This document shows, one piece after another, positions 7,346 through 46,164 of a stretch of 64,000 nucleotides of DNA. The translations under genes were made by a program, and so were the position numbers. The DNA is from Candidatus Eiseniibacteriota bacterium. Its GTDB lineage: Bacteria; Eisenbacteria; RBG-16-71-46; CAIMUX01; VGJL01. The notes below the pieces were generated by a model that was not told the origin of the DNA, did not search any database, and saw only the letters and a list, made by a program, of their open reading frames with translations. Where the stretch lies: positions 704,001 to 768,000 of the forward strand of contig CAWBWI010000001.1 of NCBI GenBank assembly GCA_963792585.1, read 5' to 3'. Within the stretch, counting starts at the first letter, position 1. Every line of letters begins with the position of its first letter.

Positions 7346-8326
7346 TCAGGCCCGCGGGAACTCGGGCGAGCCGCCGGGCCGCCGAGCGATGGCGAGCTTC
7401 GCGTCCTCGGCGTATTCGGGGGGCACGCAGACGCGAACCTCGCCGAGCCCGTCCATCGTGAGGCCCATGACGGGGCCCGCGCTCTCGTAATCGAGATCGA
7501 CCGGGAAACCTTCTGCCTCGAGGTATCCCTTGACGATCTCCGCCTCCGCCATGCCCGATGCCCTGTAGACGACTTCCATGCCTTCCATCGCCGTTCCTTC
7601 CACCTCGAGGAGTGCCTCGAGGAAACGCCGCCGCGCCGCTGCGGCGTGCGGGTTGCGTCTCTCGATGTCGATGAACAGCTGGAGCGAATCCCCCGTGACA
7701 TATCGGAGGATCTCGAGGAGTCGCGTGTACCCGGTCGTTGCGAGGGGACGGGGGGATGCCCCGAGCCGCTCGAGCGCACGCCCGATCCACATCACGAGCG
7801 CCTGCGTCTCCGCGATCTCCCGGTCGTGCGCATCCGGCGTCATCACGATCGTTTCGAGCCCCAGACGCTCGAGGAATCGACGGGTGAGGCGGGGCCTCCC
7901 CCCGCGCAGCGGGCAGATGACGATCGTGTGGCCCACGAGCCCGCCTGACGCGCTGTCGGGGCCGAATAGGGGATGCGTGGCCATGCAGTCGATTTCCGCG
8001 GGAACCTCCTCGAGGAGGATGGCCGCCGGCTCCACCTTCACGCTGCAGGTGTCGATCACGACGGTCGGGGGACGAAGGTGGGGCGCGAGATCACGCACGC
8101 ACTCTCGCAGCCGACCGATGGGGGGCGAGAGAACCACGTGGCGCGCACGGGCAGCTTGGCGGTGCGAGACCAACTCCACGTCAAGCTCCGTGGCATCCGC
8201 GCGCACGTCGCGGGCATCGCAGACGACTGTTTTCCCGTGATTGCGCAGGGTGGCGGCCGCGAGACGTCCGAAGCGTCCCAGGCCGACCACGGCGAACTCG
8301 GGTCGACTCAGCTCTGCCGTACCCAC
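7346..8326 (-). CDS. Prephenate/arogenate dehydrogenase (TyrA family) in frame with a C-terminal DUF2007-like domain
   Basis: VVGLGRFG Rossmann motif, DTCSVK, THPLFGP, HDREIA; tail VVYRASGMAEAEIVKGYLEAEG..GEVRVCVP; start inferred at GTG 8326. Confidence 0.75.
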   Translation of the reverse strand: MGTAELSRPEFAVVGLGRFGRLAAATLRNHGKTVVCDARDVRADATELDVELVSHRQAARARHVVLSPPIGRLRECVRDLAPHLRPPTVVIDTCSVKVEPAAILLEEVPAEIDCMATHPLFGPDSASGGLVGHTIVICPLRGGRPRLTRRFLERLGLETIVMTPDAHDREIAETQALVMWIGRALERLGASPRPLATTGYTRLLEILRYVTGDSLQLFIDIERRNPHAAAARRRFLEALLEVEGTAMEGMEVVYRASGMAEAEIVKGYLEAEGFPVDLDYESAGPVMGLTMDGLGEVRVCVPPEYAEDAKLAIARRPGGSPEFPRA

Positions 8327-9570
8327 CGCAGGATCTCCGGCAGGGTCGCCCGCTTGCCGTACATCAGGATCCCCACCCGGAAGATGCGGGCCGCCACGGC
8401 CGCGAACCCGATGATCGACAGCACCAGAATTCCCAGCGAGGTGGCGATTTGCCAGACAGGGGGCGTGTGGAGGTTGATGCGGACCAGCATGATGATCGGG
8501 GAGAAGAAGGGGATCATCGAGTAGACGACGCTCATCGTGCCATCCGGATCGCGCAGGACCTGCATCATCAGGATGATCGGTATGACGATCAACATCGTGA
8601 CCGGCCACTGCATCTGCTGAGCCTCCTGGTCCGTGGTGACCATCGCTCCGACGGCCGCATAGATTGCCGCGTAGAGCAGGAAGCCGAGCACGAAGTAGAT
8701 CACGAAGAAGCCGATGGTCAGGGGCGCCAGGGCGGCTACGTCGGCGAGGGCGGGAGTGGTGGCCTTGAGGTACGCGGCCCCGCCGATGGCGACCACCGCC
8801 CAGACCGCGTACTGGGTCAGGCCGACGCCGCCGACGCCGAGAATCTTGCCGAGCATCAGCTGGAAGGGCTTCGTAGTGGACAGAAGGATCTCCACGATGC
8901 GGGAGGTCTTGTCCTCGAGGACGCTCCGCTGCACCGCCATGCCGTAGAGCAGGACGGTCATGTAGATGATCATCGCGAAGACATAGGAGGTGATGAAGTC
9001 AGACTCGATCCCTCCCTCGCGCGCCCCCTCCTCGGTCAGCTTGAAGAGCTTGAAGGAGACCGCCTTGGAAATCGCCTTGGTCTCGTCGACCGAGATCCCG
9101 CGCACTTCGAGACGGCTCATCATGGCGGCACGCGACAGAGCGTCCCGAAAGCGACCCAGCATCTCCATGTCGCTCGCCCCCCGCGCGAAGACCTCCGCCG
9201 TACCGCCCTCGAGCGCGTCGGCCGGAATCCACAGAAGTCCCGTGTAGCTTCCCGCCAGCACTTGTTTCTGGAGCTCCTCGCGCGACCGGGCCACGCCTGC
9301 GTCCATCGGTTGCTGCCACTCGAACGTGAACCTGCGACTGCCGTCGGGCATCGTGTCGGGGAGGACACTCTCGAGCTTTCCCCCGAGGACTCCGGTCCCG
9401 TCGACCGCCAGCATGTGCATCGGCCGGCCGGTCGAGCGGGACGCCAGCCAGATCGGGACGAACGTCACCCCGAGCATGAAGACCGGAACCAGGATCGTGC
9501 TGATGAGGAAGGAGCGTTGCCGGACGCGCTCGAAGTACTCGCGCTTGAGAATGGTTCCCGTGCTGTTCAT
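8308..9570 (-). CDS. ABC-2 type exporter permease (NatB-like)
   Basis: KREYFERVR N-terminus, EDKTSRIVEILLS, GKILG, multiple TM helices. Confidence 0.9.
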   Translation of the reverse strand: MNSTGTILKREYFERVRQRSFLISTILVPVFMLGVTFVPIWLASRSTGRPMHMLAVDGTGVLGGKLESVLPDTMPDGSRRFTFEWQQPMDAGVARSREELQKQVLAGSYTGLLWIPADALEGGTAEVFARGASDMEMLGRFRDALSRAAMMSRLEVRGISVDETKAISKAVSFKLFKLTEEGAREGGIESDFITSYVFAMIIYMTVLLYGMAVQRSVLEDKTSRIVEILLSTTKPFQLMLGKILGVGGVGLTQYAVWAVVAIGGAAYLKATTPALADVAALAPLTIGFFVIYFVLGFLLYAAIYAAVGAMVTTDQEAQQMQWPVTMLIVIPIILMMQVLRDPDGTMSVVYSMIPFFSPIIMLVRINLHTPPVWQIATSLGILVLSIIGFAAVAARIFRVGILMYGKRATLPEILRWVRQS

Positions 9571-10466
9571 CGCGTTCCCTCCACCAGGCGGATGAATATC
9601 TCCTCGAGCGACGCCTCGCTCGTGTCGAAGCGACGGACTTCCACGGCATCGACGAGCCGGCGCAGGAGCACGCCGGCATCCTCGGGTCGACGCAAACGCA
9701 TCTCGGCGTAACGACCGTGGTCATCGAGCTTCTCCAGGAGGTCGAGGATCCCCTCGCGGGGAAGCTGCCCCGCGTATTCCACTTTCACCGTGCCCGTGCC
9801 GTGCTCCTGGCGGATCTTGTCCAGCGGACCCTGGATCACCACGCGTCCCTGGTGGATCAGGCAGATCCGATCGCAGCTCTTCTCCACCTGATCCATCTGG
9901 TGTGTGGAGAAGATCACGGTGGCCCCCCGGTCGCGCATCTCGAGCATCACGTCCTTCATCAGACGGGAATTGACGGGATCGAGCCCGGAGAAGGGTTCGT
10001 CGAGAATGATGAGGGCGGGGTCGTGCAAGATCGTTCCGATGAACTGAACCTTCTGCTGCATTCCCTTCGACAGCTCCTGAACCTTGCGTTTCGACCACTC
10101 GGGAACCTCGAACCTCTCGAGCCATGCGCGCGCGCGCCGGCGCGCTTCCGTCGCGGCGAGCCCGTGCAGTTCTCCGAAGAACACGAGGTGATCCTCGACC
10201 CGCATGCCTCTGTAGAGTCCTCGCTCCTCGGGCAGGAAGCCGATACGCATCATGCCCGCCTCGTCCAGTTCTCGGCCGAGGACGGTGATCGTTCCTTCGT
10301 CCGGGAGCAGGATCTTGAGGATCATGCGGATCGTCGTGGTCTTGCCGGACCCGTTGGGCCCCAGAAGCCCGAATATGGAACCCTCGGGCACATCGAAGCT
10401 CAGCCGATCGACCGCCCGTTGGGAAGCGAAGGTCTTCGAGACCTCCCGGATCGATATTGCATTCAT
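9567..10466 (-). CDS. ABC exporter ATP-binding subunit (NatA-like)
   Basis: GPNGSGKTT, LSKGMQQKV, ILDEPFSGLDP, SLEEIF tail. Confidence 0.93.
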   Translation of the reverse strand: MNAISIREVSKTFASQRAVDRLSFDVPEGSIFGLLGPNGSGKTTTIRMILKILLPDEGTITVLGRELDEAGMMRIGFLPEERGLYRGMRVEDHLVFFGELHGLAATEARRRARAWLERFEVPEWSKRKVQELSKGMQQKVQFIGTILHDPALIILDEPFSGLDPVNSRLMKDVMLEMRDRGATVIFSTHQMDQVEKSCDRICLIHQGRVVIQGPLDKIRQEHGTGTVKVEYAGQLPREGILDLLEKLDDHGRYAEMRLRRPEDAGVLLRRLVDAVEVRRFDTSEASLEEIFIRLVEGTR

Positions 10467-10566
10467 GCGCGCCCCTCCGTTTCCGCGGGATGATACGCAG
10501 TCGCCCAGCGCGACGCCACGCCGGATCCGCCGATGCTATACTGCGGCTCGAGCGAGAGGAGCGGAA

Positions 10567-11448
10567 TTGGACCTCGACGAGACCGGCGCTGCAGGATCAC
10601 CTCCCCGGGGATCGGCAGGCGGAGGATCGGTTCCTTCGCCGGTCCCTGCGGGGCGTAGGATGCGCCCCTTCCTGGTTCCAGGCGCCCTCTTCCTGCTGAC
10701 CGTCATCACGACCACGCTCGCGAATGGTCCTTTCTACGCCGCCTGTCTGCTCGGGATCCTCGTCGTGCACGAGGGAGGTCACTACCTCATGTGCCGGCGG
10801 TATCACGTGCCGTCGACGCTTCCCTACTTCATTCCCCTCCCGCCGATGATCTCGTTTCTCGGGACTCTCGGCGCCGTGATTCGCATGCGTCTGATGACGG
10901 GGGATCGGAAGATCCTCTACGACATCGGCATCGCCGGCCCCCTGGCGGGCCTCTGCGTCGCGGTTCCGGTGAGTTGCTGGGGGCTCGCGCACTCCAGGCT
11001 CGTGACGAAGCCCCCCCCGGGAACTTCGATCGAGCTGGGCGACTCGTTGCTCTTCCATTTCCTTCAACGCGTCTTCTTCGGCCCTGTGGGGCCTGGACAG
11101 GATCTGCTGCTCCATCCGGTCGCTCTGGCGGGATGGGCGGGCCTGTTCGTCACTGGGCTCAACCTGATCCCCGTCGGGATGCTCGACGGCGGACACGTCG
11201 TCTACGGTCTGCTGGGGCGCAAGGCTCTCTGGGTGAACATCGCCGCGATGGCGGGAATCGCGGTGCTCGGCGTGACCTTCTTCCCATTCTGGCTAGGATG
11301 GTTCGTGCTGCTCCTGATCATCGGCATCCGTCATCCGGCCTCCGCGCTCCCCAGCGGGACCATCGACCGTCGAAGGCTGCTGCTGGGGGTGGCCACGCTC
11401 GTTCTCTTCGCCCTCTGCTTCGTGCCTCGTCCCGTCCGCATTCCATGA
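10567..11448 (+). CDS. Site-2 protease (peptidase M50)
   Basis: HEGGH, GIAGPLAG, NLIPVGMLDGGH; start TTG 10567 (or ATG 10660). Confidence 0.9.
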   Translation: MDLDETGAAGSPPRGSAGGGSVPSPVPAGRRMRPFLVPGALFLLTVITTTLANGPFYAACLLGILVVHEGGHYLMCRRYHVPSTLPYFIPLPPMISFLGTLGAVIRMRLMTGDRKILYDIGIAGPLAGLCVAVPVSCWGLAHSRLVTKPPPGTSIELGDSLLFHFLQRVFFGPVGPGQDLLLHPVALAGWAGLFVTGLNLIPVGMLDGGHVVYGLLGRKALWVNIAAMAGIAVLGVTFFPFWLGWFVLLLIIGIRHPASALPSGTIDRRRLLLGVATLVLFALCFVPRPVRIP

Positions 11449-12527
11449 GCGCTCCCGAGACGGCTCTGCTGGTCCTGCATCGAGGCGCCCGCGCCGGCAC
11501 GGAGTTCCATGCGCTCTGGCTGGCCCAGGGACTCCGGAAGCGCGGATGGGATGTGGCCCTCGCCGTGTCGGAGGATGGTCCGATCCTCGACCTCTTTCGG
11601 GATGCGAGTGTGAGCGTCCACAGGATCCCGCGCCGACGCGGGATGGACTTCGTCTACATCGCATCCCTGGCGAGGCTCGCCGCGCGGCTTGGGGCCGAGG
11701 TCATGCACGCGCACAGCGGGCGACTGCCGATGCTCGCCGCGAGACTGGCGGGCGTTCCCGCGCGGATCGAAACGCGTCACGGCCTCGGAGCGCCCGAGGA
11801 TTCTGTTTCGCCCGGGCGTGCCCGTGCCGAGGCGCGACGCTGCCGAATGGCACAGATGACGATCACGGTGAGCCGGGTCGATCGAGAACGTCTCATTGCG
11901 GGCGGTCTCGAACCGGAGCGGATCCGATGCATCCCGAACGGGATCCCCTCCGCCAGCGTCGGCCGCGGCGTTGCGATCCCAGGGATGGTGCGGCTCGGAT
12001 TTCTCGGGCGATTGACCGAACAGAAGGATCCGTTGTTCCTGATCCCGCTGGCCGGCGAGTTGGACCGCCGTCTTCCCGGACGCTGGAGCCTTGCGATCGC
12101 AGGCGACGGTCCGCTGCGTGCCCGGTTGGAGGCGGGGTTCCGGTCTCCAAACGTGCAGTTTCTGGGGGAGATCCCCGGGCCCGCGTCGCTGTTCGCACAG
12201 ATCGACATCCTCTGTGTCCCTTCGGCATGGGAGGGTCAACCGCTCGGGGTCCTCGAAGCGATGGCTGCGGGGGTTCTAGTCGTCGCCCGGGACATCCCAA
12301 CGCTCAAGGAACTGCTCGGCGGCCCGCCCGGGGCGGGCGTGGTCCTGCCAGGAGACCCCAAGGCATGGGCCGATGAGATCATCTCACTCTCCACGGACCT
12401 CGCCCGACAGGAGATGCTTCAGGGCAATGCGCGCGCGCGGATCCTCGACGAGCATGGACTCGATCGGATGATCGAGCGGATCGAGTCCGCCTATCGGGAT
12501 GCCCTGGCCGCGGCGGGTCGCGGCTGA
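11445..12527 (+). CDS. Glycosyltransferase family 4
   Basis: MHAHS, IPNGI, GRLTEQK, PSAWEGQPLGVLEAMAAG; ATGA overlap with upstream stop. Confidence 0.9.
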   Translation: MSAPETALLVLHRGARAGTEFHALWLAQGLRKRGWDVALAVSEDGPILDLFRDASVSVHRIPRRRGMDFVYIASLARLAARLGAEVMHAHSGRLPMLAARLAGVPARIETRHGLGAPEDSVSPGRARAEARRCRMAQMTITVSRVDRERLIAGGLEPERIRCIPNGIPSASVGRGVAIPGMVRLGFLGRLTEQKDPLFLIPLAGELDRRLPGRWSLAIAGDGPLRARLEAGFRSPNVQFLGEIPGPASLFAQIDILCVPSAWEGQPLGVLEAMAAGVLVVARDIPTLKELLGGPPGAGVVLPGDPKAWADEIISLSTDLARQEMLQGNARARILDEHGLDRMIERIESAYRDALAAAGRG

Positions 12528-13290: not shown

Positions 13291-13319
13291 TTGACACATT
13301 CTAGACATCCGTCTATTCT
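13291..13319 (+). promoter_or_regulatory. sigma-70-like promoter of the FG-GAP/kinase/EBP operon
   Basis: TTGACA-N17-TATTCT. Confidence 0.65.
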
Positions 13320-13372
13320 GTTCTCGCAACAGCTTTCGGGGCAAAGGATCCGCGCCCCCGGGAATTTCGTGT

Positions 13373-15088
13373 TTGACCAGGAGGTCTCGCGTGTCTCGAC
13401 TTGCGCCGTTTGGCTTGCTCTGCACCCTGCTCGCCCTCGCTTCCTCCTCCATCGCCGTGATTCCGCTACCGACCACTCCCGACTGGGAGTCGACGCCGAA
13501 CGGCCAGTATGGGACCGGTCTCGGCGTCGGCGACCTGAACGGGGACGGGTGGGTCGACCTGGTCGTCGCCAACGGAAACGACATGGCCCGGCAGCGCGTC
13601 ACCGTCTATCTGAATAGCGGGGCCGGGAGCTATCCGGTCGCCCCGAACTGGTCGTCCGCGGATATCGACTATCACGGGCACCTGGACCTCGCCGATGTCG
13701 ACGGGGACGGATTCCTCGACTGCGCCGTCGCCGTCTATCTCGGTGCGGGAGGGTTCGGCACGAAGGGAAGAGTCAAACTCTACCGAGGAGCGGGAGACGG
13801 CACCTTCAGCGCCAATCCCGTCTGGCAGTCAGCGGACACATTCTATTGTTTCTCCCTGGCGTTCGGGGACATCAACATGGACGGTCGTCCGGACCTCGCC
13901 TGCGCAACCGGCGACGACTACAACAACAACGCGGAGAGGCGACGCGTCTACAGGAACCTTGGCGCGACGTTGGAAACCAGTCCTTCCTGGATGTCGACCG
14001 AGAACGAATACTCGCTCGACGCCACCTGGGCCGACTTCAACAATGACGGCTACCTCGATCTCGCATTCGCCGGGACCTCGTGTCCGAACAGAATCTACTT
14101 CTCCCAGGGGGGGATCCTCCAAACGACGGCGGGCTGGAGTTCCTCGGACGCCTCGATCTACGCCAATACGGCTGCCACAGGAGACGTAGACGGCGACGGT
14201 TGGACCGACCTTGCGATCGCCGACAACAACCAGCTCGGCGGATCCGGTCGTTTCAAGTTGTACCGAAACCAAGGCAACGGAACGCTTGCCACCCAGCCGA
14301 CATGGCAATCGGTCCAGGCGGGCTACGGATCTCAGGTCTCTCTGATCGATGTCGACGAGGATGGTGATCTCGACCTGTCCACGGGGATGTGGTGGGGCCC
14401 GGTCCGGATCTACGAGAACCAGGGTGGGACCCTCACCGTGAACCCCACCTACAGCTCGGCGACGAGTTCCGTGATCGAAAACGAGGTGTGGGAGGATGTC
14501 GACAACGACGGTCTGCAGCGCGGCCTCGGCGCCAGCTGGACGGGGGACGGGACCCGCAAGCTCTTCTACTTCCCGACTCGACCGGTCCGACAAGTCCTGT
14601 CGATGACCGTCGGGGATCTCAGCGTGCCGGTATCGAGCCTTCTACTCGACGCGGACGACGCCTGGGTTGTGCTGCCATCCGCCCCGTCGACAGGCGCCGT
14701 CGTTCGCGCATCCTATGTCAGCTCCGCGGATGTGGATCTCGCCCTCTCGAACTGGGACACCAGTGAGGGAGAGTATCTCTTCCGCAATCTCCGCAATCCC
14801 TCGGCCACCCCCGAGCCGCTCGCGGGCGCGATCCGTCTGATCCTCTCGCCGAACCCCTCGCGGGGCACACTCCGTCTCCGTCTCGAAGACCAGAACTCCG
14901 CCGCGCCGGGAGAGATTGAGATCTTCGATCCGGCCGGCCGCCGGGTCCGTGTCCTGGCGGGGATGTCGACGGAAGGCGTGTGGGATGGGCGGGACGCATC
15001 CGGTAGATCCGTTCCAAGCGGCGTCTACTTCATCCGCTGGACGCGGGGTTCCGGTGCCTCGGTTACCGGACAAGTGATCCGCGAATGA
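13373..15088 (+). CDS. Secreted FG-GAP (VCBS-like) repeat protein with C-terminal FlgD-Ig/T9SS-like domain
   Basis: Signal peptide; repeated DLNGDGWVDL, DVDGDGFLDC, DINMDGRPDL, DFNNDGYLDL, DVDGDGWTDL; tail PNPS..IFDPAGRRV..WDGRDASG..VPSGVYF. Confidence 0.88.
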   Translation: MTRRSRVSRLAPFGLLCTLLALASSSIAVIPLPTTPDWESTPNGQYGTGLGVGDLNGDGWVDLVVANGNDMARQRVTVYLNSGAGSYPVAPNWSSADIDYHGHLDLADVDGDGFLDCAVAVYLGAGGFGTKGRVKLYRGAGDGTFSANPVWQSADTFYCFSLAFGDINMDGRPDLACATGDDYNNNAERRRVYRNLGATLETSPSWMSTENEYSLDATWADFNNDGYLDLAFAGTSCPNRIYFSQGGILQTTAGWSSSDASIYANTAATGDVDGDGWTDLAIADNNQLGGSGRFKLYRNQGNGTLATQPTWQSVQAGYGSQVSLIDVDEDGDLDLSTGMWWGPVRIYENQGGTLTVNPTYSSATSSVIENEVWEDVDNDGLQRGLGASWTGDGTRKLFYFPTRPVRQVLSMTVGDLSVPVSSLLLDADDAWVVLPSAPSTGAVVRASYVSSADVDLALSNWDTSEGEYLFRNLRNPSATPEPLAGAIRLILSPNPSRGTLRLRLEDQNSAAPGEIEIFDPAGRRVRVLAGMSTEGVWDGRDASGRSVPSGVYFIRWTRGSGASVTGQVIRE

Positions 15089-18000
15089 GCACGCGCACGC
15101 CAGGGCGGACCGAGAAGCGTTGGGGTCCGTTCGATTGCATCGCCCTGGTCCACCAGGCTCTGGATCGCGGTCTGTGGCAGGTCCGGAATGCTCGCAATGG
15201 TCACACGGAGATCCTGAAGCTTGCCCCGCCCGAGGCATCGGAGGAGGCTCGGCGCGCCCTCGCGGAGGAATTCCTACTCCTGGACCGGATCCATCACCCA
15301 CACTGGGTGCGACCCATCGGCTTTATTCACCTCGACGACGGCTCGAGCGGATATCGGATGGAGGACGCGGGGACACCCGTGTCCGAAGGCGCCGGCGATG
15401 GTTGGCTTCCTCGAGATCTCGGCGCCGTGCGTGAGTTGCTGGGTGCTCTGGCCTGTCTGCATGCGCTCGGTTACGTCCACCTCGACATCAAGCCGTCCCA
15501 ACTCCTGCAAAGCCCCGGCGGAGTGAAGCTGATCGATCCGGGTCTAGCCGCGGTGGAAGGATCCGCACTGGCGGCGAGGGGAACGTGGGGCTTCATCGCA
15601 CCCGAGGTTCTGCGCGACGCTCCTTGGGATCGACGCGCCGATTTCTACGCGCTCGGCTGCGTTCTCGTGGAGATCTGGACAGGAGAGAATCCACTCGGTG
15701 AGGGGGAGATCGCCGAGCAACTTCGCAGACAGCGAAGCCGACCCCGTCTGCGCCTGCGTGAGAGAGTGTCCGACGTTCCCGAGGGGCTCGATCGAGTCGT
15801 CGAGGCGCTGCTCGATCCAGACCCGGAGCGACGACCTCGAACGGCGCGCGAGGTCTGGACCTCATTGCACACCATGGCGGCCTACCGAGAGGGATACGCC
15901 GAGCGCAGGCGACTGCCCCAGCCACTCGACCTGCCGTTCCTGGGGGTGGAGGCGGTCGAGGCGGCCTGGGATCGCGCCCTGGAGGGCGGCGGGCCGGAGC
16001 GCTGGGTCATCACCGGACCCATCGGAAGCGGCAGGCGCCGATTGCTCGAGCGCCTGAGTGCGCGGTCCGAAGTGGCCGGGTTCTCTTGCGAGTCGCGGCC
16101 CGATGCGTTCATGGCCGTGCGCAAGGACCCATCGAGCGGCGCCTTGAGGGAGGTGCAGTGCCGCGTCGGGAAGCCCTCGCGGGGCGAGGAACGAATCGAG
16201 TTGGGCGCAGTCGGGGACCGCGCGGCCGCCGCCGCCCTCGAGGCGTACGGCCTCGAGGCCGAGGGGGACGAGGCGACTTGGACGCGCGTCCTGCTTCGAC
16301 TCCGTCTCCTGGAGCGCCTGGGAGCGGAGGCGGAGCGACGCAGGAGTGGCCGCGAGCGACGCGCCGTCGCGACTGCGGTTGGGGGCGCGATCGAGGACGC
16401 GGACCGCCTGCGACTGGGGAGATTGCTCGCCCGCGATGTCTCGGATCCACCTCTTCACGGCGCCTCGGGAGAGGCTCTCGTCAAGTGCGGCCTGGCCCGT
16501 GTGGATTCCGCGGGGAATCTCCAGGCAGCCTGCCCTCCTTGGGAGGAGATGTCGCTCGCCGTCGTGGTTGGCGAGGAGGCGCTGGCCGAGGCCCACCGCG
16601 CCTTCTTGGAGGAGGCCGGAGGCCGCCTCATCGCAGGGGCAGTTCATGCGCTCGGCTGCGGGGATACGGCGACGACACTCACCCAAGTGCTTCCCGCAGT
16701 GGCGCAGCTTCGGGAAGAAGGCGACCTCGGTCGCGCATTCGAACTCCTCGCCCGTTCGCGCGACCTGCTCGCGGCGGACTGGCCCGCCTCGTGGGCGATC
16801 GAGCATGCGTCCATTGCGCTGGAGGACGGGACGCCCGCTCGTGTGATGTCCCTCCTGGGACCGACGGGTCCCGCGCTTCCCGACGCGTGGCGGATGCTTC
16901 TCGAAGCCCATCTGCAGTACCGCTCCGGGCGACGGAGGGAAGCAATCGCCGCCGCGCGGGCGGCGCAGGAACGAACCGGCGATACCCGGATCGCGCGCGC
17001 AGCGGAGATGATCGTAATCCGCTCCCAGAACGCGCTCGGTGAGACGGAGGATGCGGAGGCGGGCGCGAGGAAGCTCCTCGAGCAAACGGCTCCTGATGCG
17101 CCGTTGATCGAACGTCTCCGTCCTGCTGCGCTGTTGTTGAGCATCCTCTCCTCCCATGGAGCATCCGAGGAGGCATGTGCCCCGCTGCGAGACCTGTGCG
17201 CAAGAAACCTGACCAGAGTAGGCGCGCGGGAACGGCACGAAGTCGCGGCCTCGCTCGGAACAGAGGCGTTCCAGCGGGGCGATTTCGCTGCGGCCGGGAC
17301 ATTCATGGAGATCGCCGTAGAGGCGGCTGCAAGCTGCCACGATCCAGCGAACCTGGCCATCGGCCAGATGAACCTGGCCGGAGTCTATTTCGAAGAAGGG
17401 CGCACGGCGGAATGCGAGGACCTGAATGGTCAGGCCTTGCGGGCCTGCGTGGCGGTTGGGATGGAAGTCCAGGCGGCTTACGCTCAGCGCAATCTCGGGA
17501 CAGTGATGCTCGCAACCGGACGGTTGGGGGAGGCACTGAATCTCTGCAGGAAGGCGCGGGAAGTACTCGGGGCAAATCCGGCGTCTCCGAATGCCCTCGC
17601 TGCTCTCGCCGTAGAGAGCGAGACCCTATTGGAAGCAGGGCTGTATGAATCTTCTCGAAGATCCCTTGGCGAGGCCATTGACCTCCTGGCAGCAAACCCG
17701 ATCCCGATGATCGCCACGGTCATCTGGCGCGACATGGCGCGCCTCGAGCGATGGACGGGTCAACTCGATAGGTCCGCAGACCTGCTGGATGAAGCAAGGC
17801 GCCAAGCGCGCGAATGCGGCGCCTCGGACGACGAAGCCAGGGCGCTCATCGAGATGGCAGCATTGCGCATCGCAGGTGGAGACTTGTGCGGGGGCGCGAG
17901 GTTTCTCGATGAAGCCGCCCCGATCGTCCGGGCTTCGACGAGCCTCGAGTTGGCCCTCCGTTTCGATTTCGCGCGTGCGATGCACTGCCGGGATGAGAAC

Positions 18001-18318
18001 GCCCAGGCCGCCGAATTGCTCGCCGCAGCGACCGCGCGGGCGGCGCGGGCCCATCTCGCCGGATGGCTCTGGCGCTGTTACGCGGCCGATGCGGGGATCG
18101 CGCGGTCCGCTGGGGACGGTGACCGTGTGCTTCGCTCCATCTATGCGGCCCGCCGAACGCTCCTCGACCTGCTGGACGGCATCGGGCCGGAGGCGATGCG
18201 GGAATCATACGTAATGCTTTGCGACAGCCGCCTGTTCCTCGCTTGGTGCGATGGGGATACGGGCACACGTGAGGAGCTCCCCCGCGGGGGCTCCGATTTG
18301 GAGGTATTTCTGCAATGA
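15085..18318 (+). CDS. Ser/Thr kinase-like domain, degenerate NTPase and TPR-like helical repeats
   Basis: VHLDIKPSQ, KLIDPGLA, GTWGFIAPE, ADFYALG; GPIGSGRR P-loop remnant; C-terminal A/L-rich repeats (NLAGVYF, NLGTVML). Confidence 0.8.
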   Translation: MSTRTPGRTEKRWGPFDCIALVHQALDRGLWQVRNARNGHTEILKLAPPEASEEARRALAEEFLLLDRIHHPHWVRPIGFIHLDDGSSGYRMEDAGTPVSEGAGDGWLPRDLGAVRELLGALACLHALGYVHLDIKPSQLLQSPGGVKLIDPGLAAVEGSALAARGTWGFIAPEVLRDAPWDRRADFYALGCVLVEIWTGENPLGEGEIAEQLRRQRSRPRLRLRERVSDVPEGLDRVVEALLDPDPERRPRTAREVWTSLHTMAAYREGYAERRRLPQPLDLPFLGVEAVEAAWDRALEGGGPERWVITGPIGSGRRRLLERLSARSEVAGFSCESRPDAFMAVRKDPSSGALREVQCRVGKPSRGEERIELGAVGDRAAAAALEAYGLEAEGDEATWTRVLLRLRLLERLGAEAERRRSGRERRAVATAVGGAIEDADRLRLGRLLARDVSDPPLHGASGEALVKCGLARVDSAGNLQAACPPWEEMSLAVVVGEEALAEAHRAFLEEAGGRLIAGAVHALGCGDTATTLTQVLPAVAQLREEGDLGRAFELLARSRDLLAADWPASWAIEHASIALEDGTPARVMSLLGPTGPALPDAWRMLLEAHLQYRSGRRREAIAAARAAQERTGDTRIARAAEMIVIRSQNALGETEDAEAGARKLLEQTAPDAPLIERLRPAALLLSILSSHGASEEACAPLRDLCARNLTRVGARERHEVAASLGTEAFQRGDFAAAGTFMEIAVEAAASCHDPANLAIGQMNLAGVYFEEGRTAECEDLNGQALRACVAVGMEVQAAYAQRNLGTVMLATGRLGEALNLCRKAREVLGANPASPNALAALAVESETLLEAGLYESSRRSLGEAIDLLAANPIPMIATVIWRDMARLERWTGQLDRSADLLDEARRQARECGASDDEARALIEMAALRIAGGDLCGGARFLDEAAPIVRASTSLELALRFDFARAMHCRDENAQAAELLAAATARAARAHLAGWLWRCYAADAGIARSAGDGDRVLRSIYAARRTLLDLLDGIGPEAMRESYVMLCDSRLFLAWCDGDTGTREELPRGGSDLEVFLQ

Positions 18319-20042
18319 ACATTGAACCCGAGCCGGCGAGAGGATTACCGGATATCGATGGGGCCGATGAGCGCGGAGAGCAGAGGACGACGGCCCGACG
18401 GCAGCTGGACGGCCTCAACCGCGGCATGACCCTGGAGGAGAGGATTACTCTCCTCGCCCAGCAAGAGGAGTCGCGCAAGGAGTTGGAGCGGCTTGACCGT
18501 CTTGTCCAGGCGTACCACCGACTGGCGGCCGGTTCCCGAGCGCTCACCTCGATCCTGGACCTCGATGCCCTCTTGGCAGCGATCCTCAAGGAGGTCGTCA
18601 ACCTCACGAAAGTCGATCGCAGCTTCCTCCTGCTCGCCGATGCATCGGGCACGCTTCGGATCGAGAAAGGGTACGACAGGCAGTTGGGCGCCCTCGAGGC
18701 AGATGCCGTCAATTTGGTGAGCATGTCCACGGCAAGACGCTGCCTCACGGAATCGAAGCAGCTTTGGATCCACCACCCGCTGCAGCTGCCCGAGTTCCGC
18801 ATGCAGGGGAGCATCGCCGAACTCAAGCTGTCCGAGATCCTGTGCGCCCCGCTGGAGACTGCCGGCGGTCCGATCGGCGTTCTCTACCTTGACAGCCGGC
18901 GCGCCGACAGCCTCGTGCCGCCCGAGGAACGTGAAGTCCTGGGGGCGTTCGCGGCGCAGGCGGCCATCGCACTCGAGAATGCGAGACTTCACCGGGAGCT
19001 CATGGAGGCGCGAGCGGGCCTTGAACGCGAGAACCGAGACCTTCGGAGGACGGTTCCCGGCGCGACAGGAGTCGGGGCCATCCTGGGTCACAGCCGTGCA
19101 ATCGAAGAACTCCGCGACCGGATCGGCCTGGTGCAGGAGTCTCACTTCCCGGTCATGATCTTGGGTGAAACCGGAACGGGAAAGGACCTTGTTGCAAGGG
19201 CGATTCACAGCGGCGGCCTTCGGGCGGCGGCGCCGTTCTTGGCGGTTCATTGCGGGGCCCTCCCCGGAGAGCTGCTGGAGAGCGAGATGTTCGGCCACAA
19301 GAAAGGGTCCTTCACCGGGGCGCTCCAGGACAAGCAAGGCGTATTCGAGGCCGCGGACGGCGGCAGCCTCTTCCTCGACGAGATCGGGGAAATGCCGATG
19401 CAACTCCAGGTCAAGCTCCTGCGCGCCCTCGAGGACGGAGAGATCCGCAGAGTCGGAGAGAACCTTCCTCGGAAAGTCGACGTGCGGATCATCTCCGCGA
19501 CGAACCGCGATGTCGATGCGATGATCGCCGACAGCACTTTTCGCGACGACCTCTACTACAGGCTCAGGGTCGTCACCCTGCTGACTCCGCCCCTGCGGGA
19601 GCAGAAGGAGGACATCCTGTCTCTCGCCGAGCATTTCCTGCGCAGTTTGCTCGACGCCATCAACCGCCCCTACGCCGGGTTCACTCCGGCTGCCGCTCGG
19701 TTCCTCTTGGAACATCCGTGGCCCGGCAATGTCCGGGAGCTGCGAAACATGATCGAGGGCGCCTCCGTGTTCCTGAAGCCGGGTTCCCCGATGGACGCGG
19801 CGGACCTACAGCTCGCGGCCGGTGGCAGGCGGAATCCTACTCGGGCATCCGCGGTCCCTGCCGCAGGGGAGTCGAGCCTCCGCGACTTCCGCCAGGAAGC
19901 CGAAAGGCAGCTCGTGGTGGAGTCCTTGGAACGATCGAATTGGAACGTGAGTCGTGCCGCGAAGGACCTGGGGATCTCGCGCCAGCACCTTCACAACCGG
20001 ATCCGCTATTACGAGCTGGAGCGGCCGGAACGCCACGAGTAA
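18315..20042 (+). CDS. GAF-domain sigma-54 enhancer-binding protein (NifA/FhlA-like) with Fis HTH
   Basis: GAF (IGVLYLDS..AAIALENA), GETGTGK, ESEMFGHKKGSFTGA, FLDEIGE, FRDDLYYRL, WPGNVREL, NVSRAAKDLGISR. Confidence 0.95.
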   Translation: MNIEPEPARGLPDIDGADERGEQRTTARRQLDGLNRGMTLEERITLLAQQEESRKELERLDRLVQAYHRLAAGSRALTSILDLDALLAAILKEVVNLTKVDRSFLLLADASGTLRIEKGYDRQLGALEADAVNLVSMSTARRCLTESKQLWIHHPLQLPEFRMQGSIAELKLSEILCAPLETAGGPIGVLYLDSRRADSLVPPEEREVLGAFAAQAAIALENARLHRELMEARAGLERENRDLRRTVPGATGVGAILGHSRAIEELRDRIGLVQESHFPVMILGETGTGKDLVARAIHSGGLRAAAPFLAVHCGALPGELLESEMFGHKKGSFTGALQDKQGVFEAADGGSLFLDEIGEMPMQLQVKLLRALEDGEIRRVGENLPRKVDVRIISATNRDVDAMIADSTFRDDLYYRLRVVTLLTPPLREQKEDILSLAEHFLRSLLDAINRPYAGFTPAAARFLLEHPWPGNVRELRNMIEGASVFLKPGSPMDAADLQLAAGGRRNPTRASAVPAAGESSLRDFRQEAERQLVVESLERSNWNVSRAAKDLGISRQHLHNRIRYYELERPERHE

Positions 20043-20075
20043 GTGTCACTGTAATACGACAGTGACACTTGACAC
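20041..20075. promoter_or_regulatory. Palindrome, candidate enhancer (UAS) for the adjacent EBP
   Basis: Perfect 12-bp arms AAGTGTCACTGT-AATACG-ACAGTGACACTT plus an extra TGACAC; no U-tract; about 200 bp upstream of a -24/-12 promoter. Confidence 0.55.
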
Positions 20076-20267
20076 TGTCGCGGGATGCCAACTCCTTATC
20101 ATATAAACGGTTGCCAGCAACAGCCACCGCGGAGTGTAAACAGCCGACTTCTCGCTGCGCAAACTGCCGCCACGGCGCTTCCGCTGCATCCCGCCGAGGA
20201 GCTTCGTAACAATAAACATTGTAGCTAGTTACGGGTTCGCATATTTCCTAACAGCCTTAGGGGAATT

Positions 20268-20283
20268 TGGCACGCCCCCTGCT
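20268..20283 (+). promoter_or_regulatory. sigma-54 (-24/-12) promoter 1
   Basis: TGGCACGCCCCCTGCT versus consensus TGGCACG-N4-TTGCW; GG-N10-GC spacing exact. Confidence 0.75.
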
Positions 20284-20359
20284 CTACAGGAGGTCGGATG
20301 CGCGGAATGCGCATCTGAAGTGAGGCAAAGGCCTCGTGTCCAGGAAGGGGGTGAGTAGG

Positions 20360-20431
20360 ATGTTCGTAGGTGGTCTCGTGATCAGCTTCTTCTGGTTCCT
20401 TGCTCTGGCCATGGGCCGGGCTGGCTGGTAG
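20360..20431 (+). CDS. Putative 23-aa hydrophobic peptide MFVGGLVISFFWFLALAMGRAGW
   Basis: ATG preceded by purine-rich AGGAAGGGGGTGAGTAGG, about 75 nt after sigma-54 promoter 1; below the ORF-track cutoff. Confidence 0.55.
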   Translation: MFVGGLVISFFWFLALAMGRAGW

Positions 20432-20506
20432 GCGGATGTAGCTCAACTCTCCCGTCCGGGCGTCGCGGCAGTGGCGGTCGGTCAGTGCGGGAGAAGAGAG
20501 CGCGGA

Positions 20507-20567
20507 GCGGCCTCAAACCTCGTCTGGGACAGCCCCAACCGGACGAGGGGGGAGGCCGCACCTTTGT
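20507..20567 (+). terminator. Long hairpin downstream of the small peptide
   Basis: GCGGCCTC/GAGGCCGC enclosing CCTCGTCTGG/CCGGACGAGG, followed by ACCTTTGT. Confidence 0.45.
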
Positions 20568-20793
20568 ACCCGCCTGCTGACCCAATTTGGCGGAAATCGG
20601 CCCATGATGTTTAACCCACGGGTTGGCAATGGTTTGCGTCGCCCGATTCCCCTGGTACGCCGCGATTGGGGCGCTTCGACGCACCAAGTGGTTTCCCCGC
20701 GCGAATCCACTTGGTTCACGGATGCCCCGTAGTCATATGGCATGCAATGGGATAGAGAATGGTCAGCCAGGCTCTGCTCCGGGCAGATCAACC

Positions 20794-20809
20794 TGGCACC
20801 GAACCTGCC
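20794..20809 (+). promoter_or_regulatory. sigma-54 (-24/-12) promoter 2
   Basis: TGGCACCGAACCTGCC, GG-N10-GC, 40 nt upstream of ATG 20849. Confidence 0.65.
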
Positions 20810-20848
20810 GTCACCTCCCGCAGGCATTCGCCTGGGGAGGAACCAGAC

Positions 20849-21308
20849 ATGAAGAACCATCGGTACCTGCTGATGCTCGTAGCGCTCCTGATGCTGGGGG
20901 CGGGATGTTCGAGCGACTCTGAATCGCCCCTCGCACCCGCGGTAGCTGTTCCGATGGGGGGCCCCGGGCTAGAATTTTCAGACCCGAGTCATCGGCCCCG
21001 ATGGAGGGTGCGTCGTCAACGGCGGAGTCCGCCTCGATATCCCGGCCGGGGCTCTCAGCGCCCCGACGATGATCGGGATCGAGTTGCTAGCGGACGGCTC
21101 CGTCGATCTCACGCCGAATGGCCAGCAGTTCGAGGTTCCGGTTTCTCTCACGTTCAACTTGGCCCCGGGTCAAGACCCACTTCACCGCGTGGTCGAGTGG
21201 TTCGATCCGGCCGGCGGATGGGTCGTGATTCCGAGCCTCGCGTCCGCGGGTCGCCGGGTTGCGCCTCTGATGCACTTCTCGATTTACCACATCGTCGCTT
21301 ACGAATAG
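20849..21308 (+). CDS. Lipoprotein with ZU5-like domain and C-terminal HFS motif (frameshift near 20976)
   Basis: RBS GGGGAGG, MKNHRYLLMLVALLMLGAG-C lipobox; after removing one T: VIGPDGG..LDIPAGAL..VDLTPNGQQFEVPVSLTF..WFDPAGGW..LMHFSIY. Confidence 0.7.
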
Positions 21309-21436
21309 CCTGCTAGTCCTCCCTGCCCAAACACCGCGAGGCGGGCCGGGGTCATCCCCCGACCCGCTTCGGCCTTTTGGCCGCTTGTGGGGGCGGCGCT
21401 CTCATCCGTACGATCCGGCCCGGGAGTGGAGGTGCG

Positions 21437-40049: not shown

Positions 40050-40682
40050 ATGCCTCGCTACTTTGAAGATCCGAACCAGTGGGAGAAGCCCGAAAAGAAC
40101 AAGTTTCTCCCCGCCCTTGCGGCAAGAAGTTGGTATCTGGTCGTTCCGCTGATCGCAGTCTGGTGGTTCCACACGAAGGCGGTCGTCCCCCAGATCGCGG
40201 CGATCGATCAGAAAATCGTGGAGGACCGGAAGGAAACCGAGTTGATACGCAGCAAGACGCTGGCCGAGGCGCGCGGGCTCGGGGTAGAGATATCCAAGCT
40301 CCGGGCCGAGGCGGACACCTTCTCCGTGCGCAGCGGTCAATATGCCGCGGTGCTCGACAGCGTACTCGCCATTCAGCGGAAGCACGTCAGCGAGACGCAT
40401 CGGCTCGAGATTCAGTCCGACTCGCTCCGAGCGATCCTCTCCGAAACGGACGGGAAGTCGCTTGTGTATTCGGACTCCTTGACGCGAATGCAAGCGCAAG
40501 TCGATTCGCTCCGCACGCTGATCGATAGCCGCCTGGCCGAGGCAAAGCGCCTGGAAGAGGAGATCGCGGTGAATCGCGACCTCGCCGATCGGCTGAATCG
40601 TCCCGAGATCTATCGAAAGAACACGGCGCTCGTCACCGGATCGGGAAACTACCCGAACCGGGACGCCTTGCCGAAGCGCTAG
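40050..40682 (+). CDS. Single-pass membrane coiled-coil protein
   Basis: GGAGG RBS; WYLVVPLIAVWWF TM followed by heptad-like helix with repeated DSL. Confidence 0.7.
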   Translation: MPRYFEDPNQWEKPEKNKFLPALAARSWYLVVPLIAVWWFHTKAVVPQIAAIDQKIVEDRKETELIRSKTLAEARGLGVEISKLRAEADTFSVRSGQYAAVLDSVLAIQRKHVSETHRLEIQSDSLRAILSETDGKSLVYSDSLTRMQAQVDSLRTLIDSRLAEAKRLEEEIAVNRDLADRLNRPEIYRKNTALVTGSGNYPNRDALPKR

Positions 40683-40697
40683 GGGAGGGATCGAACT

Positions 40698-41678
40698 GTG
40701 GTTCGGCATTGGACGGACGACGATACCCCGAGGGAGAAGTTCAAGCTTCGTCCGAAGCACGCCTTTCTCCTCGTCGACCTGGCGGTCCTGGCGGTCATCT
40801 TCACGGTCGCGGGTCGGATGTATGTGAACTCCCACGGCGCCAAGCTGATCGCCGCCAAGGAACAGCAGCGCGTCGCCGCCCAGGCGGAGAACGCCGCGCT
40901 CTTGATGCAGGCGGACTCCGTTGCGGCCGCCGCGAATTCATCACTCACGGAGATGAAGTCGGAGCATTCCCAGACGATCGACGAGCTTCAGCGTCTCAAG
41001 ACGCAACTCGAGAATGACGTCCCCAGAACGCGGCAACTCGAGCAGGGTCTCTTCCGCCTCTCCGACATGGTCCTCGACCTGCGCGAGCGGAGCGTGGTCG
41101 CGAACAAGGAGTTGAAATCCCGCGAGCGCAACGCGCACGAGAGAAGCGCGGAGGTCGACTCGCTCCGCAACAAGTCGGATCGCACGACGCAGGCGCTCAC
41201 TCAGACCCAAGCCGAGTATGCGAGCGCGACCACGGATCTTGGACAGGCCAAGCAGAGTGAGGCCCATGACCCGAAGGGGCTCTTTCCGGCCTCCACGGGG
41301 GTGGCGCTCCGGCGCGACATGAGCGCCAACCAGGACCTCACCAACCTCGAGTTGCAGCATCTCTTCTATAATTCGGGGATGAACGATCTGGGTGTTTCGA
41401 TGGCCTTTGGACTCGGATCGAACGATGAGGTCGCATCGAACAAGGAGGTGGGGCTCCTTCTGACGCGACCCTTAATTCACCGCAGGCTGGGGCTGGACCT
41501 TGGGGCGGGATTCTCCCAGCTCTCGAATACGGGCGGCACTGATGACAACGGGGCGTACGCGTCGGCGGCCCTGCGACTCTCGCCGTTCTACAAGGAGCGA
41601 TTCCACGTCGGCCTTGGGGCGCGGGCGAGCCACGGGGACTTCGTGCCGTTCCTCGGCTTCTCCATCGGCCGGCGATAG
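40698..41678 (+). CDS. Membrane-anchored coiled-coil protein with C-terminal beta-strand-rich (barrel-like) domain
   Basis: TM AFLLVDLAVLAVIFTVAG, long coiled coil, then amphipathic strands ending VPFLGFSIGRR. Confidence 0.65.
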   Translation: MVRHWTDDDTPREKFKLRPKHAFLLVDLAVLAVIFTVAGRMYVNSHGAKLIAAKEQQRVAAQAENAALLMQADSVAAAANSSLTEMKSEHSQTIDELQRLKTQLENDVPRTRQLEQGLFRLSDMVLDLRERSVVANKELKSRERNAHERSAEVDSLRNKSDRTTQALTQTQAEYASATTDLGQAKQSEAHDPKGLFPASTGVALRRDMSANQDLTNLELQHLFYNSGMNDLGVSMAFGLGSNDEVASNKEVGLLLTRPLIHRRLGLDLGAGFSQLSNTGGTDDNGAYASAALRLSPFYKERFHVGLGARASHGDFVPFLGFSIGRR

Positions 41679-41695
41679 GCGGAGGGACCACGGAG

Positions 41696-42685
41696 ATGGG
41701 TGCGCCGGATTCGATGCAGACCCAGCCGCCGGGACGGCCGCACGCACCGCGTCTCCGCGCGCGTATCTGGGTCTACCTGTCGATCGTGGTTGCACTGCTG
41801 GCATTCCGGGTTGTCCCGGGGTTGGTCAGTCGCTGGAGAACCTCCGAGGAGCTTCGCAATGCTCCCAAGACGCTCACGCTCGCGGGACTGGACCTCGCCC
41901 CCACGCTCATCCCGCGGATCGTCGACTCCTACCGCGTTCTCTACCCGCACATTGAATTCCAGATTCTGCCGGGAGGCACCCGGCAAGCGCTCGAGGACCT
42001 CTTCAATCTGCGGGCCGACGTGGCATTCACGAGCAGGCCGATGACAATCGATGAGCAAAGAATCGTGCGCGCCATCGGAGACACCGCGTTGTCTTTCCCG
42101 ATCGCCCTGGGTGGTATCGCCGTTCTCGGCGCGACTGGAATGCCCCCGGACTCGCTCCCGATCGAGCAGCTCCGACGAATCCTCCGTGGAGATCGCCCGA
42201 GCGATCTGCAGGTTCCGGAGCCGGATCACCTCTACGCGGCGGATCCGAATCTGGGACTCTGGACGGCACTTACGACCCAACTGGGTCTCCCGGACTCCAC
42301 CGGCGCGGCAATCTCCTGGCTCGCGAGCGATTTCGACGTCATCCAGGCCGTGGGAAACGATCGGGGCTCGCTCGGCTTCGTGAGCACGCTCGCGCTGCCC
42401 GCGGACCTCGATCGGCGCGGCGTGCGTCCGATCGGCCTCCGGGGCGAGCAAACCTGGGAGGCCGCGACCCTGACCGAGGGTAACGTCGCCGGCGGGGCCT
42501 ATCCTCTCTTTCACTATCTGTACGTCTCCTGCCGGCCCGAGGGTGGACCGTTGGCCTCCGGGTTCGTCTCGTTTCTGAACAGCGGCAAGGGCCAACGTCT
42601 CGTCGAGCGGGAAGGATTCCTGCCGGCCAGGGCGATGCCTCGCGAGATCGAACTGGTGCAGAGACCGATCAGCGCGACCGGTTGA
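41696..42685 (+). CDS. PstS-like periplasmic binding protein, membrane-anchored
   Basis: GGT..AL.DL....DVAF.SR, IALGGIAV, GSLGFV, G.YPL...LY, FVSFLNS.KGQRLV...GF.P. Confidence 0.78.
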   Translation: MGAPDSMQTQPPGRPHAPRLRARIWVYLSIVVALLAFRVVPGLVSRWRTSEELRNAPKTLTLAGLDLAPTLIPRIVDSYRVLYPHIEFQILPGGTRQALEDLFNLRADVAFTSRPMTIDEQRIVRAIGDTALSFPIALGGIAVLGATGMPPDSLPIEQLRRILRGDRPSDLQVPEPDHLYAADPNLGLWTALTTQLGLPDSTGAAISWLASDFDVIQAVGNDRGSLGFVSTLALPADLDRRGVRPIGLRGEQTWEAATLTEGNVAGGAYPLFHYLYVSCRPEGGPLASGFVSFLNSGKGQRLVEREGFLPARAMPREIELVQRPISATG

Positions 42686-42711
42686 CATCCACGAGGAAGG
42701 GAGAGATCTAG

Positions 42712-44582: not shown

Positions 44583-44615
44583 GAAGCGTCGGACCAAGAG
44601 GAGAGGGTTGAAAGC

Positions 44616-44966
44616 ATGACCTTGGACGTGGAGAAGCGCGGCGATGTTCATATCCTCAAACCTCGAAAGGACCTGAGCGGCGGAGAGGAGACGAGGGAGA
44701 TCGAGAAGGCGATTCAAGACATCATCGCTCAAGGGCCGCCGCATGTCGTCATCGACCTAGGGAAGGTCTCCTATGTGAACAGCACCGGCCTGGGGTCTCT
44801 CGTAGCGGCACACACGAGTTGTCGAAACCGTGAGGGCTGGCTTCGGCTGGCACAGATCGGCAAGAGAATCAAGAACCTGTTCCTGATCACGAAGTTGGCG
44901 TTTGTTTTCGAGACTTTCGATAGCGTCGATGAGGCCATCGAAGGCAAGGACCGCGGAGAAAAGTGA
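44616..44966 (+). CDS. STAS-domain anti-sigma factor antagonist
   Basis: VVIDLGKVSYVNSTGLGSLV (phosphoacceptor Ser), IKNLFLITKL..VFE.FDSVDEA. Confidence 0.92.
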   Translation: MTLDVEKRGDVHILKPRKDLSGGEETREIEKAIQDIIAQGPPHVVIDLGKVSYVNSTGLGSLVAAHTSCRNREGWLRLAQIGKRIKNLFLITKLAFVFETFDSVDEAIEGKDRGEK

Positions 44967-44992
44967 GCTAAGAGCTTAGCCGGAGGATTCAA

Positions 44993-46160: not shown

Positions 46161-46164
46161 GCCC

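Follow-up and report, generated by a model that had tools for sequence, protein, structure and literature searches.

A conserved sigma-54 peptide cassette in Candidatus Eisenbacteria is a candidate core of a TPR-sensed autoinduction loop

A hallmark of Gram-positive bacteria is the use of TPR proteins to sense peptides inside the cell, familiar from the RRNPP systems of Bacillota (Rap-Phr, PlcR-PapR, NprR-NprX, Rgg-SHP, ComR-ComS and AimR-AimP). A cassette in the genome of a Candidatus Eiseniibacteriota bacterium raises the question of whether a diderm phylum possesses a system of this kind. The cassette lies in a stretch of 64,000 nucleotides, referred to here as the window (C1:704001-768000 of the source genome, G000), and encodes a secreted FG-GAP protein, a kinase-TPR protein, a sigma-54 activator, a tiny hydrophobic peptide and a ZU5-type lipoprotein. 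An initial annotation had proposed that these form a self-contained signalling circuit. Our comparison indicates that the system is real and conserved and apparently undescribed, and it inclines us, with modest confidence, to the view that the cassette is the core of an RRNPP-like peptide autoinduction loop with TPR sensing and a sigma-54 readout. Its features are as follows (window positions, with the basis of each assignment in parentheses):

13291..13319, + strand: sigma-70-type promoter of the three-gene operon, TTGACA-N17-TATTCT (sequence)
13391..15088, + strand: secreted FG-GAP repeat protein with a FlgD-type Ig C-terminal domain, 565 residues (Pfam)
15085..18318, + strand: atypical Ser/Thr kinase with a degenerate STAND-like NTPase and a TPR superhelix, 1077 residues; candidate cytoplasmic receptor (Pfam, model, fold match)
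18315..20042, + strand: GAF-AAA+-Fis helix-turn-helix sigma-54 activator, 575 residues (Pfam, motifs)
20041..20070, no strand: inverted repeat whose core TGTC-N10-GACA (20044-20061) is the predicted activator site (sequence, conservation)
20205..20260, no strand: AT-richer tract with a weak IHF-like site at 20211-20223 (2 mismatches)
20268..20282, + strand: sigma-54 promoter P1 (-24/-12), predicted start near 20294 (motif, kept in 4/4 family relatives)
20360..20431, + strand: 23-residue hydrophobic peptide MFVGGLVISFFWFLALAMGRAGW, candidate signal precursor (open reading frame, comparison)
20432..20570, + strand: strong hairpins 3' of the peptide gene, about -40 kcal/mol, a possible terminator or stabiliser (folding without shuffle control)
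20794..20808, + strand: sigma-54 promoter P2 (motif; TGGCA.CGAA..TGCCG invariant in 5/5)
20849..21308, + strand: ZU5-fold lipoprotein with an HFS motif, predicted cut between Phe and Ser, and a variable 9-residue tail that is not GRAGW (comparison, ortholog model)
21337..21370, + strand: terminator-like hairpin and T run 3' of the lipoprotein gene (sequence)
10660..11448, + strand: M50 intramembrane peptidase, three genes upstream; a possible processing enzyme, as a lead only (profile match)

Is this layout more than a chance grouping? A kinase-TPR ortholog was found in all five family relatives, and the gene order, both sigma-54 promoters, the peptide gene and the lipoprotein gene are kept in the four relatives (4/4) that have downstream sequence, with diverging spacers, so that the neighbourhood is conserved as the initial annotation had anticipated. 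Its sigma-70 promoter and its three coupled genes were also recovered: the ATGA overlaps lie at 15085-88 and 18315-18, the Pfam domains agree with the FG-GAP, kinase-TPR and GAF-AAA-Fis assignments, and TTGACA-N16/18-TAnnnT is located 5' of the FG-GAP gene in 6/6 family genomes. Among 20 loci fetched by a kinase match, the kinase and activator genes are adjacent in 13 and in swapped order in 6 of the 13; the peptide gene is part of 10 of these 13 cassettes, and the remaining three genomes encode it elsewhere. The FG-GAP gene is adjacent in 5/5 family relatives and in four further loci and is absent beside six other cassettes, which rules it out as an obligatory part. It starts at GTG 13391, with GGAGG ahead, an alternative TTG at 13373 being lost in close strains.

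Kin genomes are not independent, and the housekeeping genes flanking the cassette are syntenic as well. Such flanking synteny would suit an explanation in which ordinary regulators and a spurious short open reading frame (ORF) were grouped by chance in a conserved chromosomal region. So would the bare DNA pattern for GRAGW followed by a stop codon, which is no commoner than its reversed control (83 versus 79 matches, counted by hand); its count alone was therefore dropped. When read, the matches of this pattern fell into three kinds: short hydrophobic ORFs preceded by a ribosome-binding site, ends of ZU5 proteins, and chance hits, the last including L049, L056, L059, L063, L066, L068, L079, L082 and L342-L344. 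In contrast, a fuller pattern that also demands a ribosome-binding site and a start codon, in its Lys variant, was found in 64 of 206 phylum genomes and its reversed control in 0 of 206, and the Lys-variant matches that were fetched are all hydrophobic ORFs of 16-23 residues (30/30). In a GTDB-wide scan, among the 80 titled matches of at least 120 listed, hydrophobic peptides account for all 14 with an Eisenbacteria title, versus 2 of the 59 assigned to other named taxa and 3 of the 7 unclassified ones; this listing does not prove that the family is confined to Eisenbacteria. The tail reads GRAGW (once TRAGW) in 11 synteny-defined loci, with codon changes that are only synonymous, and ribosome-binding sites, promoter and upstream site all accompany the ORF. 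We consider a chance grouping extremely improbable, and already contradicted by these observations. The 23-residue ORF at 20360-20431, as initially annotated, is instead a member of a family of 16-26-residue hydrophobic peptides ending in G[R/K]AGW that occur across the phylum. The 23-residue peptide has no NCBIfam match, and the family libraries name neither the peptide nor the intact lipoproteins.

What controls the peptide gene? The sigma-54 promoter motif TGGCAC-N5-YTGC occurs only twice in the 64-kb window, at 20268 and 20794, the two correctly spaced promoters that had been annotated; genome-wide there are 43 sites in 5.4 Mb, with about 0.01 expected per 1.3 kb. An rpoN motif is present in the source genome, as are two HU/IHF genes. 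The palindrome upstream of P1 had been described as perfect, and the inverted repeat at 20041-20070 is indeed perfect, with 12-bp arms, although a 6-bp spacer separates them. It was rejected as a terminator, since no T run follows it and the conserved part is a spaced dyad. Its core lies about 240 bp 5' of the predicted P1 start; a conserved upstream site stands where an enhancer had been proposed, a little farther away than the 100-200 bp given. The related pattern YGTC-N10-GACR was found 205-230 bp 5' of the P1 TGGCA in 8 of 12 promoters versus 0.19 expected from shuffles, and other spacings score 0-4 of 12. Having been picked after inspection of the family sequences, it was retested on 24 peptide genes that had been held out. 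When no more than one mismatch is allowed, TGTC-N10-GACA is present in 10/10 of those from activator/kinase lineages, including all five located away from the activator, and in 0/14 genes of the MASE9 type (described below) or of family f8, against a background of 0.09 per stretch. In family f18, whose peptide gene is not beside an activator, the site was found in 7/11.

Judged from sequence, the activator, the TGTC-N10-GACA site, P1 and the peptide gene form a regulatory unit, in which TGTC-N10-GACA is the predicted activator binding site; this supports the tie between activator and peptide promoter that the initial annotation had drawn. The AT-rich tract that it had noted is present in modest form, at 55% AT over 60 bp, and the IHF-like site there is weak, with two mismatches. 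For P2 the window contains no separate upstream site, and one of four relatives has a weak one. Contigs of two RNA sequencing runs span the promoter, the peptide and the lipoprotein and equally the rest of the region, and so show neither transcription starts nor expression.

Beyond the kinase-TPR and GAF activator pair, the peptide gene is found beside TPR-activator fusions (L039, L092), 5' of an ECF sigma factor gene and, as the Lys type in family f13, directly 5' of a GAF activator gene. Tandem copies occur in five genomes. In L089, L099 and L100 the ECF sigma factor gene is preceded by a tandem of two or three peptide genes, whose upstream sites are paired, and followed by a long gene (969 residues in L099). 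In f18 (L351-L359) the peptide gene is flanked by genes for a membrane sensor-like protein and a Lon-like protease, both named by eye.

Which protein could read the peptide? The model of the candidate receptor (pLDDT 88) has a kinase (about residues 10-265), a small alpha/beta NTPase remnant (about 300-480) and a long TPR superhelix (about 495-1060). It had been called a pseudokinase. Its glycine loop is lost and its catalytic-loop Asn is replaced by Gln, each of which holds for 8/10 aligned orthologs, but Lys45, Glu62, Asp134, Asp151, DxG and APE are kept, so this label is not established. The STAND Walker A (GxxGxGKS/T) is not intact (GPIGSGRR in the window), and is intact in one of 10 aligned proteins (L109, with an AAA_16 match). 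For the TPR region, MalT domain III is a structural match (Z 26.8, root-mean-square deviation (rmsd) 4.1 over 353 residues), a high Z that among helical repeats shows fold and no function. Whole-protein fold searches of solved structures were filled by kinases, with APPBP2, APC and MalT as TPR rows, and a sequence search of solved structures returned OGT and other TPRs; among the rows listed in these searches, in which kinases and generic TPRs dominate, there was no RRNPP receptor. APPBP2 in complex with an RxxGP degron, which ranked first among the TPR rows (Z 31.7), was set aside as evidence because its spacing is different and high scores are usual for helical repeats. A complex prediction for the TPR region (residues 500-1077) with the peptide ORF gave a score of 0.02 and a mark of 0.32, with controls not folded, and yields no verdict either way.

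In the activator, Walker A, the GSFTGA loop (a GAFTGA variant), Walker B, the arginine-finger motif and the C-terminal helix-turn-helix are all intact, and its scores stay under the cut-off of each NCBIfam family shown (25 of 28). A search with its GAF region returned fused kinase-AAA_16-TPR-GAF-sigma-54 activator proteins of 1600-1830 residues as 13 of the 120 matches listed; the kinase-TPR and activator genes thus amount to a split form of such proteins. L363 and L364 encode fused kinase-type activators of 1690 residues, followed by a 92-residue exported ORF. The source genome encodes more than 15 other kinase-TPR proteins and three TPR-activator fusions (C3:845432, C1:1415781 and C3:790015). 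A sigma-54 promoter after the last of these precedes a 77-residue Cys-containing exported ORF.

The additional TPR proteins are possible receptors under another explanation, namely that the peptide is output only. The activator would then answer some other cue, such as a GAF ligand, phosphorylation or envelope stress via the kinase-TPR protein, and the peptide would act on other receptors or cells without feedback. GAF domains bind small molecules, and the link from activator to peptide is well supported while the return link is not. However, when the genes for the activator and the kinase-TPR protein are rearranged, the peptide gene keeps its place next to them or in between, and it is also found beside TPR-activator fusions. 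We regard a peptide without feedback as distinctly unlikely.

Does the tail have a second source? The lipoprotein piece in the window matches Pfam ZU5 just under the cut-off (E 7e-4). A model of its ortholog in the relative G003 (pLDDT 84) resembles the ankyrin-B ZU5 domain (TM 0.61; Z 13.3, rmsd 2.5, 113 residues) and the CD97 GAIN domain (Z 9.9), and on this model the cassette lipoprotein has a ZU5-type beta-sandwich fold. The HFS motif (residues 148-150) occupies the turn that joins strand 141-148 to strand 151-156, which is the last one and is built from just the first residues behind HFS. HFS is invariant in 11/11 aligned proteins and is lost in five cassette copies of family f2. Microbial GAIN-like MAIN domains cleave between the Phe and Ser of HFS, according to a recent preprint (Brogan and Rudner, 10.64898/2026.05.12.724683).

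ZU5 profile matches were found in 119/206 genomes. Stand-alone ZU5 lipoproteins end in HFS-x-Y-x(n)-G[R/K][A/S]GW, with HFS a few residues before the tail, and nearly all tail-bearing ZU5 proteins read keep HFS. Four ZU5-like lipoproteins are encoded in the source genome, of which a paralog in the region C1:1636027-1636575 ends in GRSGW and lies behind a near-consensus sigma-54 promoter. Of the others, that at C6:256002-256565 has a sigma-54 promoter, lacks HFS and ends in YTAGWAGR, and that at C1:357493-358932 has HLS and then a long C-terminal part. The lipoproteins that carry the tail are encoded away from the cassette, and the cassette lipoprotein was excluded as a GRAGW precursor by its variable tail and by the loss of HFS in the five f2 loci. 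Together with the cassettes that have no adjacent FG-GAP gene and with the lack of a separate upstream site for P2 in the window, this speaks against a 'self-contained' system. The two candidate precursors, which are unrelated, carry one common tail. Its Arg or Lys variant matches between them in 43 of the 47 genomes in which both were read (17 Arg/Arg and 26 Lys/Lys, with three discordant and one mixed), an agreement that tracks lineage. This tally was made by hand and omits G004, G097 and G155, which have no such tail, and G001, which has no peptide region.

Taken together, these observations suggest the following loop. The sigma-54 activator would bind TGTC-N10-GACA and drive the peptide gene, and the peptide would be exported and trimmed by signal peptidase or an M50 protease. 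ZU5 lipoproteins may cleave themselves between the Phe and Ser of HFS, freeing a peptide of 7-15 residues with the same end, which would be a second, envelope-derived input. The G[R/K]AGW tail would then be re-imported and bound by the TPR region of the kinase-TPR protein, which may control the activator via its GAF region, presumably by contact and not by NTP cycling, because the NTPase is degenerate. The cassette ZU5 protein, with its other tail, would be an output or a damper and not a precursor.

Several observations weigh against this loop. A basic N-region is missing from the peptides, and the residue at -3 of a signal-peptidase site is in many cases bulky. No importer gene lies within the cassette. 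Displaced peptide genes keep TGGCAC with a -12 element that is often degenerate, and most promoters of ZU5-GRAGW genes do not have TGTC-N10-GACA. Five Lys-type ZU5 proteins extend past KAGW, so a free end is not universal, and the Arg/Lys agreement, besides following lineage and having exceptions, gives P = 0.053 for family f17 alone. The surroundings of one acidobacterial-type fused homolog contain neither a peptide or ZU5 gene nor a sigma-54 site. The tail is also encoded 5' of a MASE9-HD-GYP gene in families f9, f11 and f17, without the upstream site, so the TPR protein need not be the reader. In addition, MAIN-domain cleavage products stay associated, according to the preprint (10.64898/2026.05.12.724683), so release would need a further step.

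The MASE9-type loci bear on a further explanation. In f9, f11 and f17 the peptide gene lies directly 5' of a membrane HD-GYP gene, which is followed by a sensorless sigma-54 activator gene (L071-L074, L076-L088, L090 and L282-L310); the MASE9 match of these HD-GYP proteins is under the Pfam cut-off. A conserved gene of 240-250 residues (L078:5704-6462), for which neither Pfam nor NCBIfam gives a match above cut-off, precedes these loci. Neither this membrane-sensor context nor the tail shared by peptide and ZU5 proteins was part of the initial annotation. The tail could be a membrane-tethered recognition tag and not a diffusible signal, the peptide staying in the membrane, the ZU5 lipoproteins showing the same end, and both being read in place by a MASE9-like membrane sensor or by an envelope enzyme for sorting, modification or proteolysis. 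The peptide is a single hydrophobic helix without an n-region, its gene directly neighbours MASE9-HD-GYP genes in three families, and on the model the ZU5 tail would be exposed without cleavage, since the last strand takes in just the first residues behind HFS. MASE9 has moreover been proposed to bind ligands within the membrane, and no MASE9 ligand is named, in the accessible part of its description (10.1101/2021.11.05.467447). On the other side, the cassette described here includes no MASE9 gene, the HFS that nearly all tail-bearing ZU5 proteins read keep would be superfluous in a mere tag, and tandem duplication of the peptide gene suggests that dose matters. We judge a tethered tag to be rather unlikely.

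Returning to the autoinduction loop, a broader form of it is a tentative possibility that we think somewhat doubtful: one G[R/K]AGW signal, made in two ways and read in two ways, might be a phylum-wide peptide language of Eisenbacteria. The two sources would be a tiny, transcriptionally amplified precursor and ZU5 lipoprotein self-cleavage, and the two readers would be cytoplasmic kinase-STAND-TPR proteins with sigma-54 activators and membrane MASE9 proteins coupled to cyclic di-GMP breakdown. The ZU5-derived tail would then be a bacterial, untethered counterpart of the Stachel peptide of adhesion GPCRs.

How does the cassette compare with known systems? Like RRNPP systems, it has a small hydrophobic precursor gene by a cytoplasmic TPR protein, a conserved C-terminal end and a precursor gene controlled by the cognate regulator, as predicted here; like SHP systems, it has an M50 protease and an ABC exporter nearby. 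It differs in that the host is diderm, the titled records with the same peptide and cassette being Candidatus Eisenbacteria and not Bacillota or phages. Its TPR region is fused to an atypical kinase and a degenerate NTPase, and not to a helix-turn-helix, a phosphatase module or a Rap helical bundle. Output appears to run via a separate sigma-54 activator, the tail is nearly invariant across the phylum, and ZU5 lipoproteins constitute a second precursor class. The summed domain order is that of the fused kinase-STAND-TPR-GAF-sigma-54 activators of Acidobacteriota and other Eisenbacteria (1077 + 575 versus 1600-1830 residues), and the TPR region resembles that of MalT-type STAND sensors; unlike either, the cassette has two genes of swappable order, a degenerate NTPase and a dedicated peptide promoter. 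With NifA/NorR/FhlA-type GAF activators the activator shares the GAF-AAA+-helix-turn-helix architecture, -24/-12 promoters, a dyad upstream site and a possible IHF bend, but it is under every cut-off shown, has its own site, TGTC-N10-GACA, and has a peptide gene as target.

The lipoproteins resemble MAIN and ZU5 autopeptidases (10.64898/2026.05.12.724683, PMC3482391) in a ZU5/GAIN-related fold, a cell-envelope location and an HX(S/T) motif (HFS in our case) at the turn that leads into the final beta-strand. The MAIN and toxin ZU5 domains described there shed large ectodomains from a C-terminal anchor, whereas here the domain is the whole lipoprotein, the anchor is N-terminal and the predicted released part has 7-15 residues. 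No signalling by the C-terminal fragment is known according to the accessible part of the MAIN preprint, whose main text, as accessible, lacks the terms 'ZU5', 'lipoprotein' and 'TPR' and whose architecture supplements could include such lipoproteins (10.64898/2026.05.12.724683). In other Eisenbacteria families the peptide tail is encoded directly 5' of genes for MASE9-HD-GYP sensors (10.1101/2021.11.05.467447), which are not part of this cassette. Our literature searches, to which most subscription papers were outside coverage, found no description of such a system, in line with the initial annotation, which had recognised none. If ZU5 self-cleavage supplies the signal, this would be a categorically new element.

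Upstream of the cassette, at 8308-12527, lie an ABC-2 exporter gene pair, the M50 peptidase gene and a glycosyltransferase gene. The M50-GT4-GT2 order is kept in 11 related loci, and the M50 peptidase is the only match to that query in the source genome, with the ABC exporter beyond it. A role of the M50 and ABC genes as dedicated processing genes was rejected, as they are syntenic, yet no more so than the two intervening glycosyltransferase genes. Elsewhere in the window, clusters read by eye from translations include a TPR, STAS and ExbB/ExbD/TonB-like cluster (40050-47414) and a polysaccharide export and exosortase-like cluster (52453-59711).

The annotated ZU5-like lipoprotein gene is present at 20849-21308, but in the source assembly it is split by one extra base near 20968-78. 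This base is absent from related-strain contigs in 3/4 sequencing runs; the fourth run, which is almost identical, does not cover this position but is free of a comparable extra base at 21710 in the following gene. The frameshift is likely an assembly error. That following gene, for a 5'-nucleotidase (PF05761, 21437-22881), is spread over three frames, and its break at 21710 is absent in two runs, which indicates that the source assembly has single-base errors. In a related strain, 7 of 315 bases differ across the promoter and peptide (20267-20581), and 201 of about 2120 across the activator region.

If the proposed loop is correct, diderm bacteria own a version of TPR peptide sensing that is wired to sigma-54. 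It would provide candidate ligands for orphan kinase-STAND-TPR(-GAF-activator) proteins, for MASE9 sensors and for small bacterial ZU5 lipoproteins. The MAIN preprint, in its accessible part, leaves open whether the C-terminal product signals (10.64898/2026.05.12.724683), and the shared tail is the strongest sequence argument we found that a short C-terminal product of a ZU5/GAIN-type domain may itself do so. With a promoter, a predicted site, an activator, a candidate receptor and a five-residue ligand defined, the loop is testable in E. coli, although the host is uncultured.

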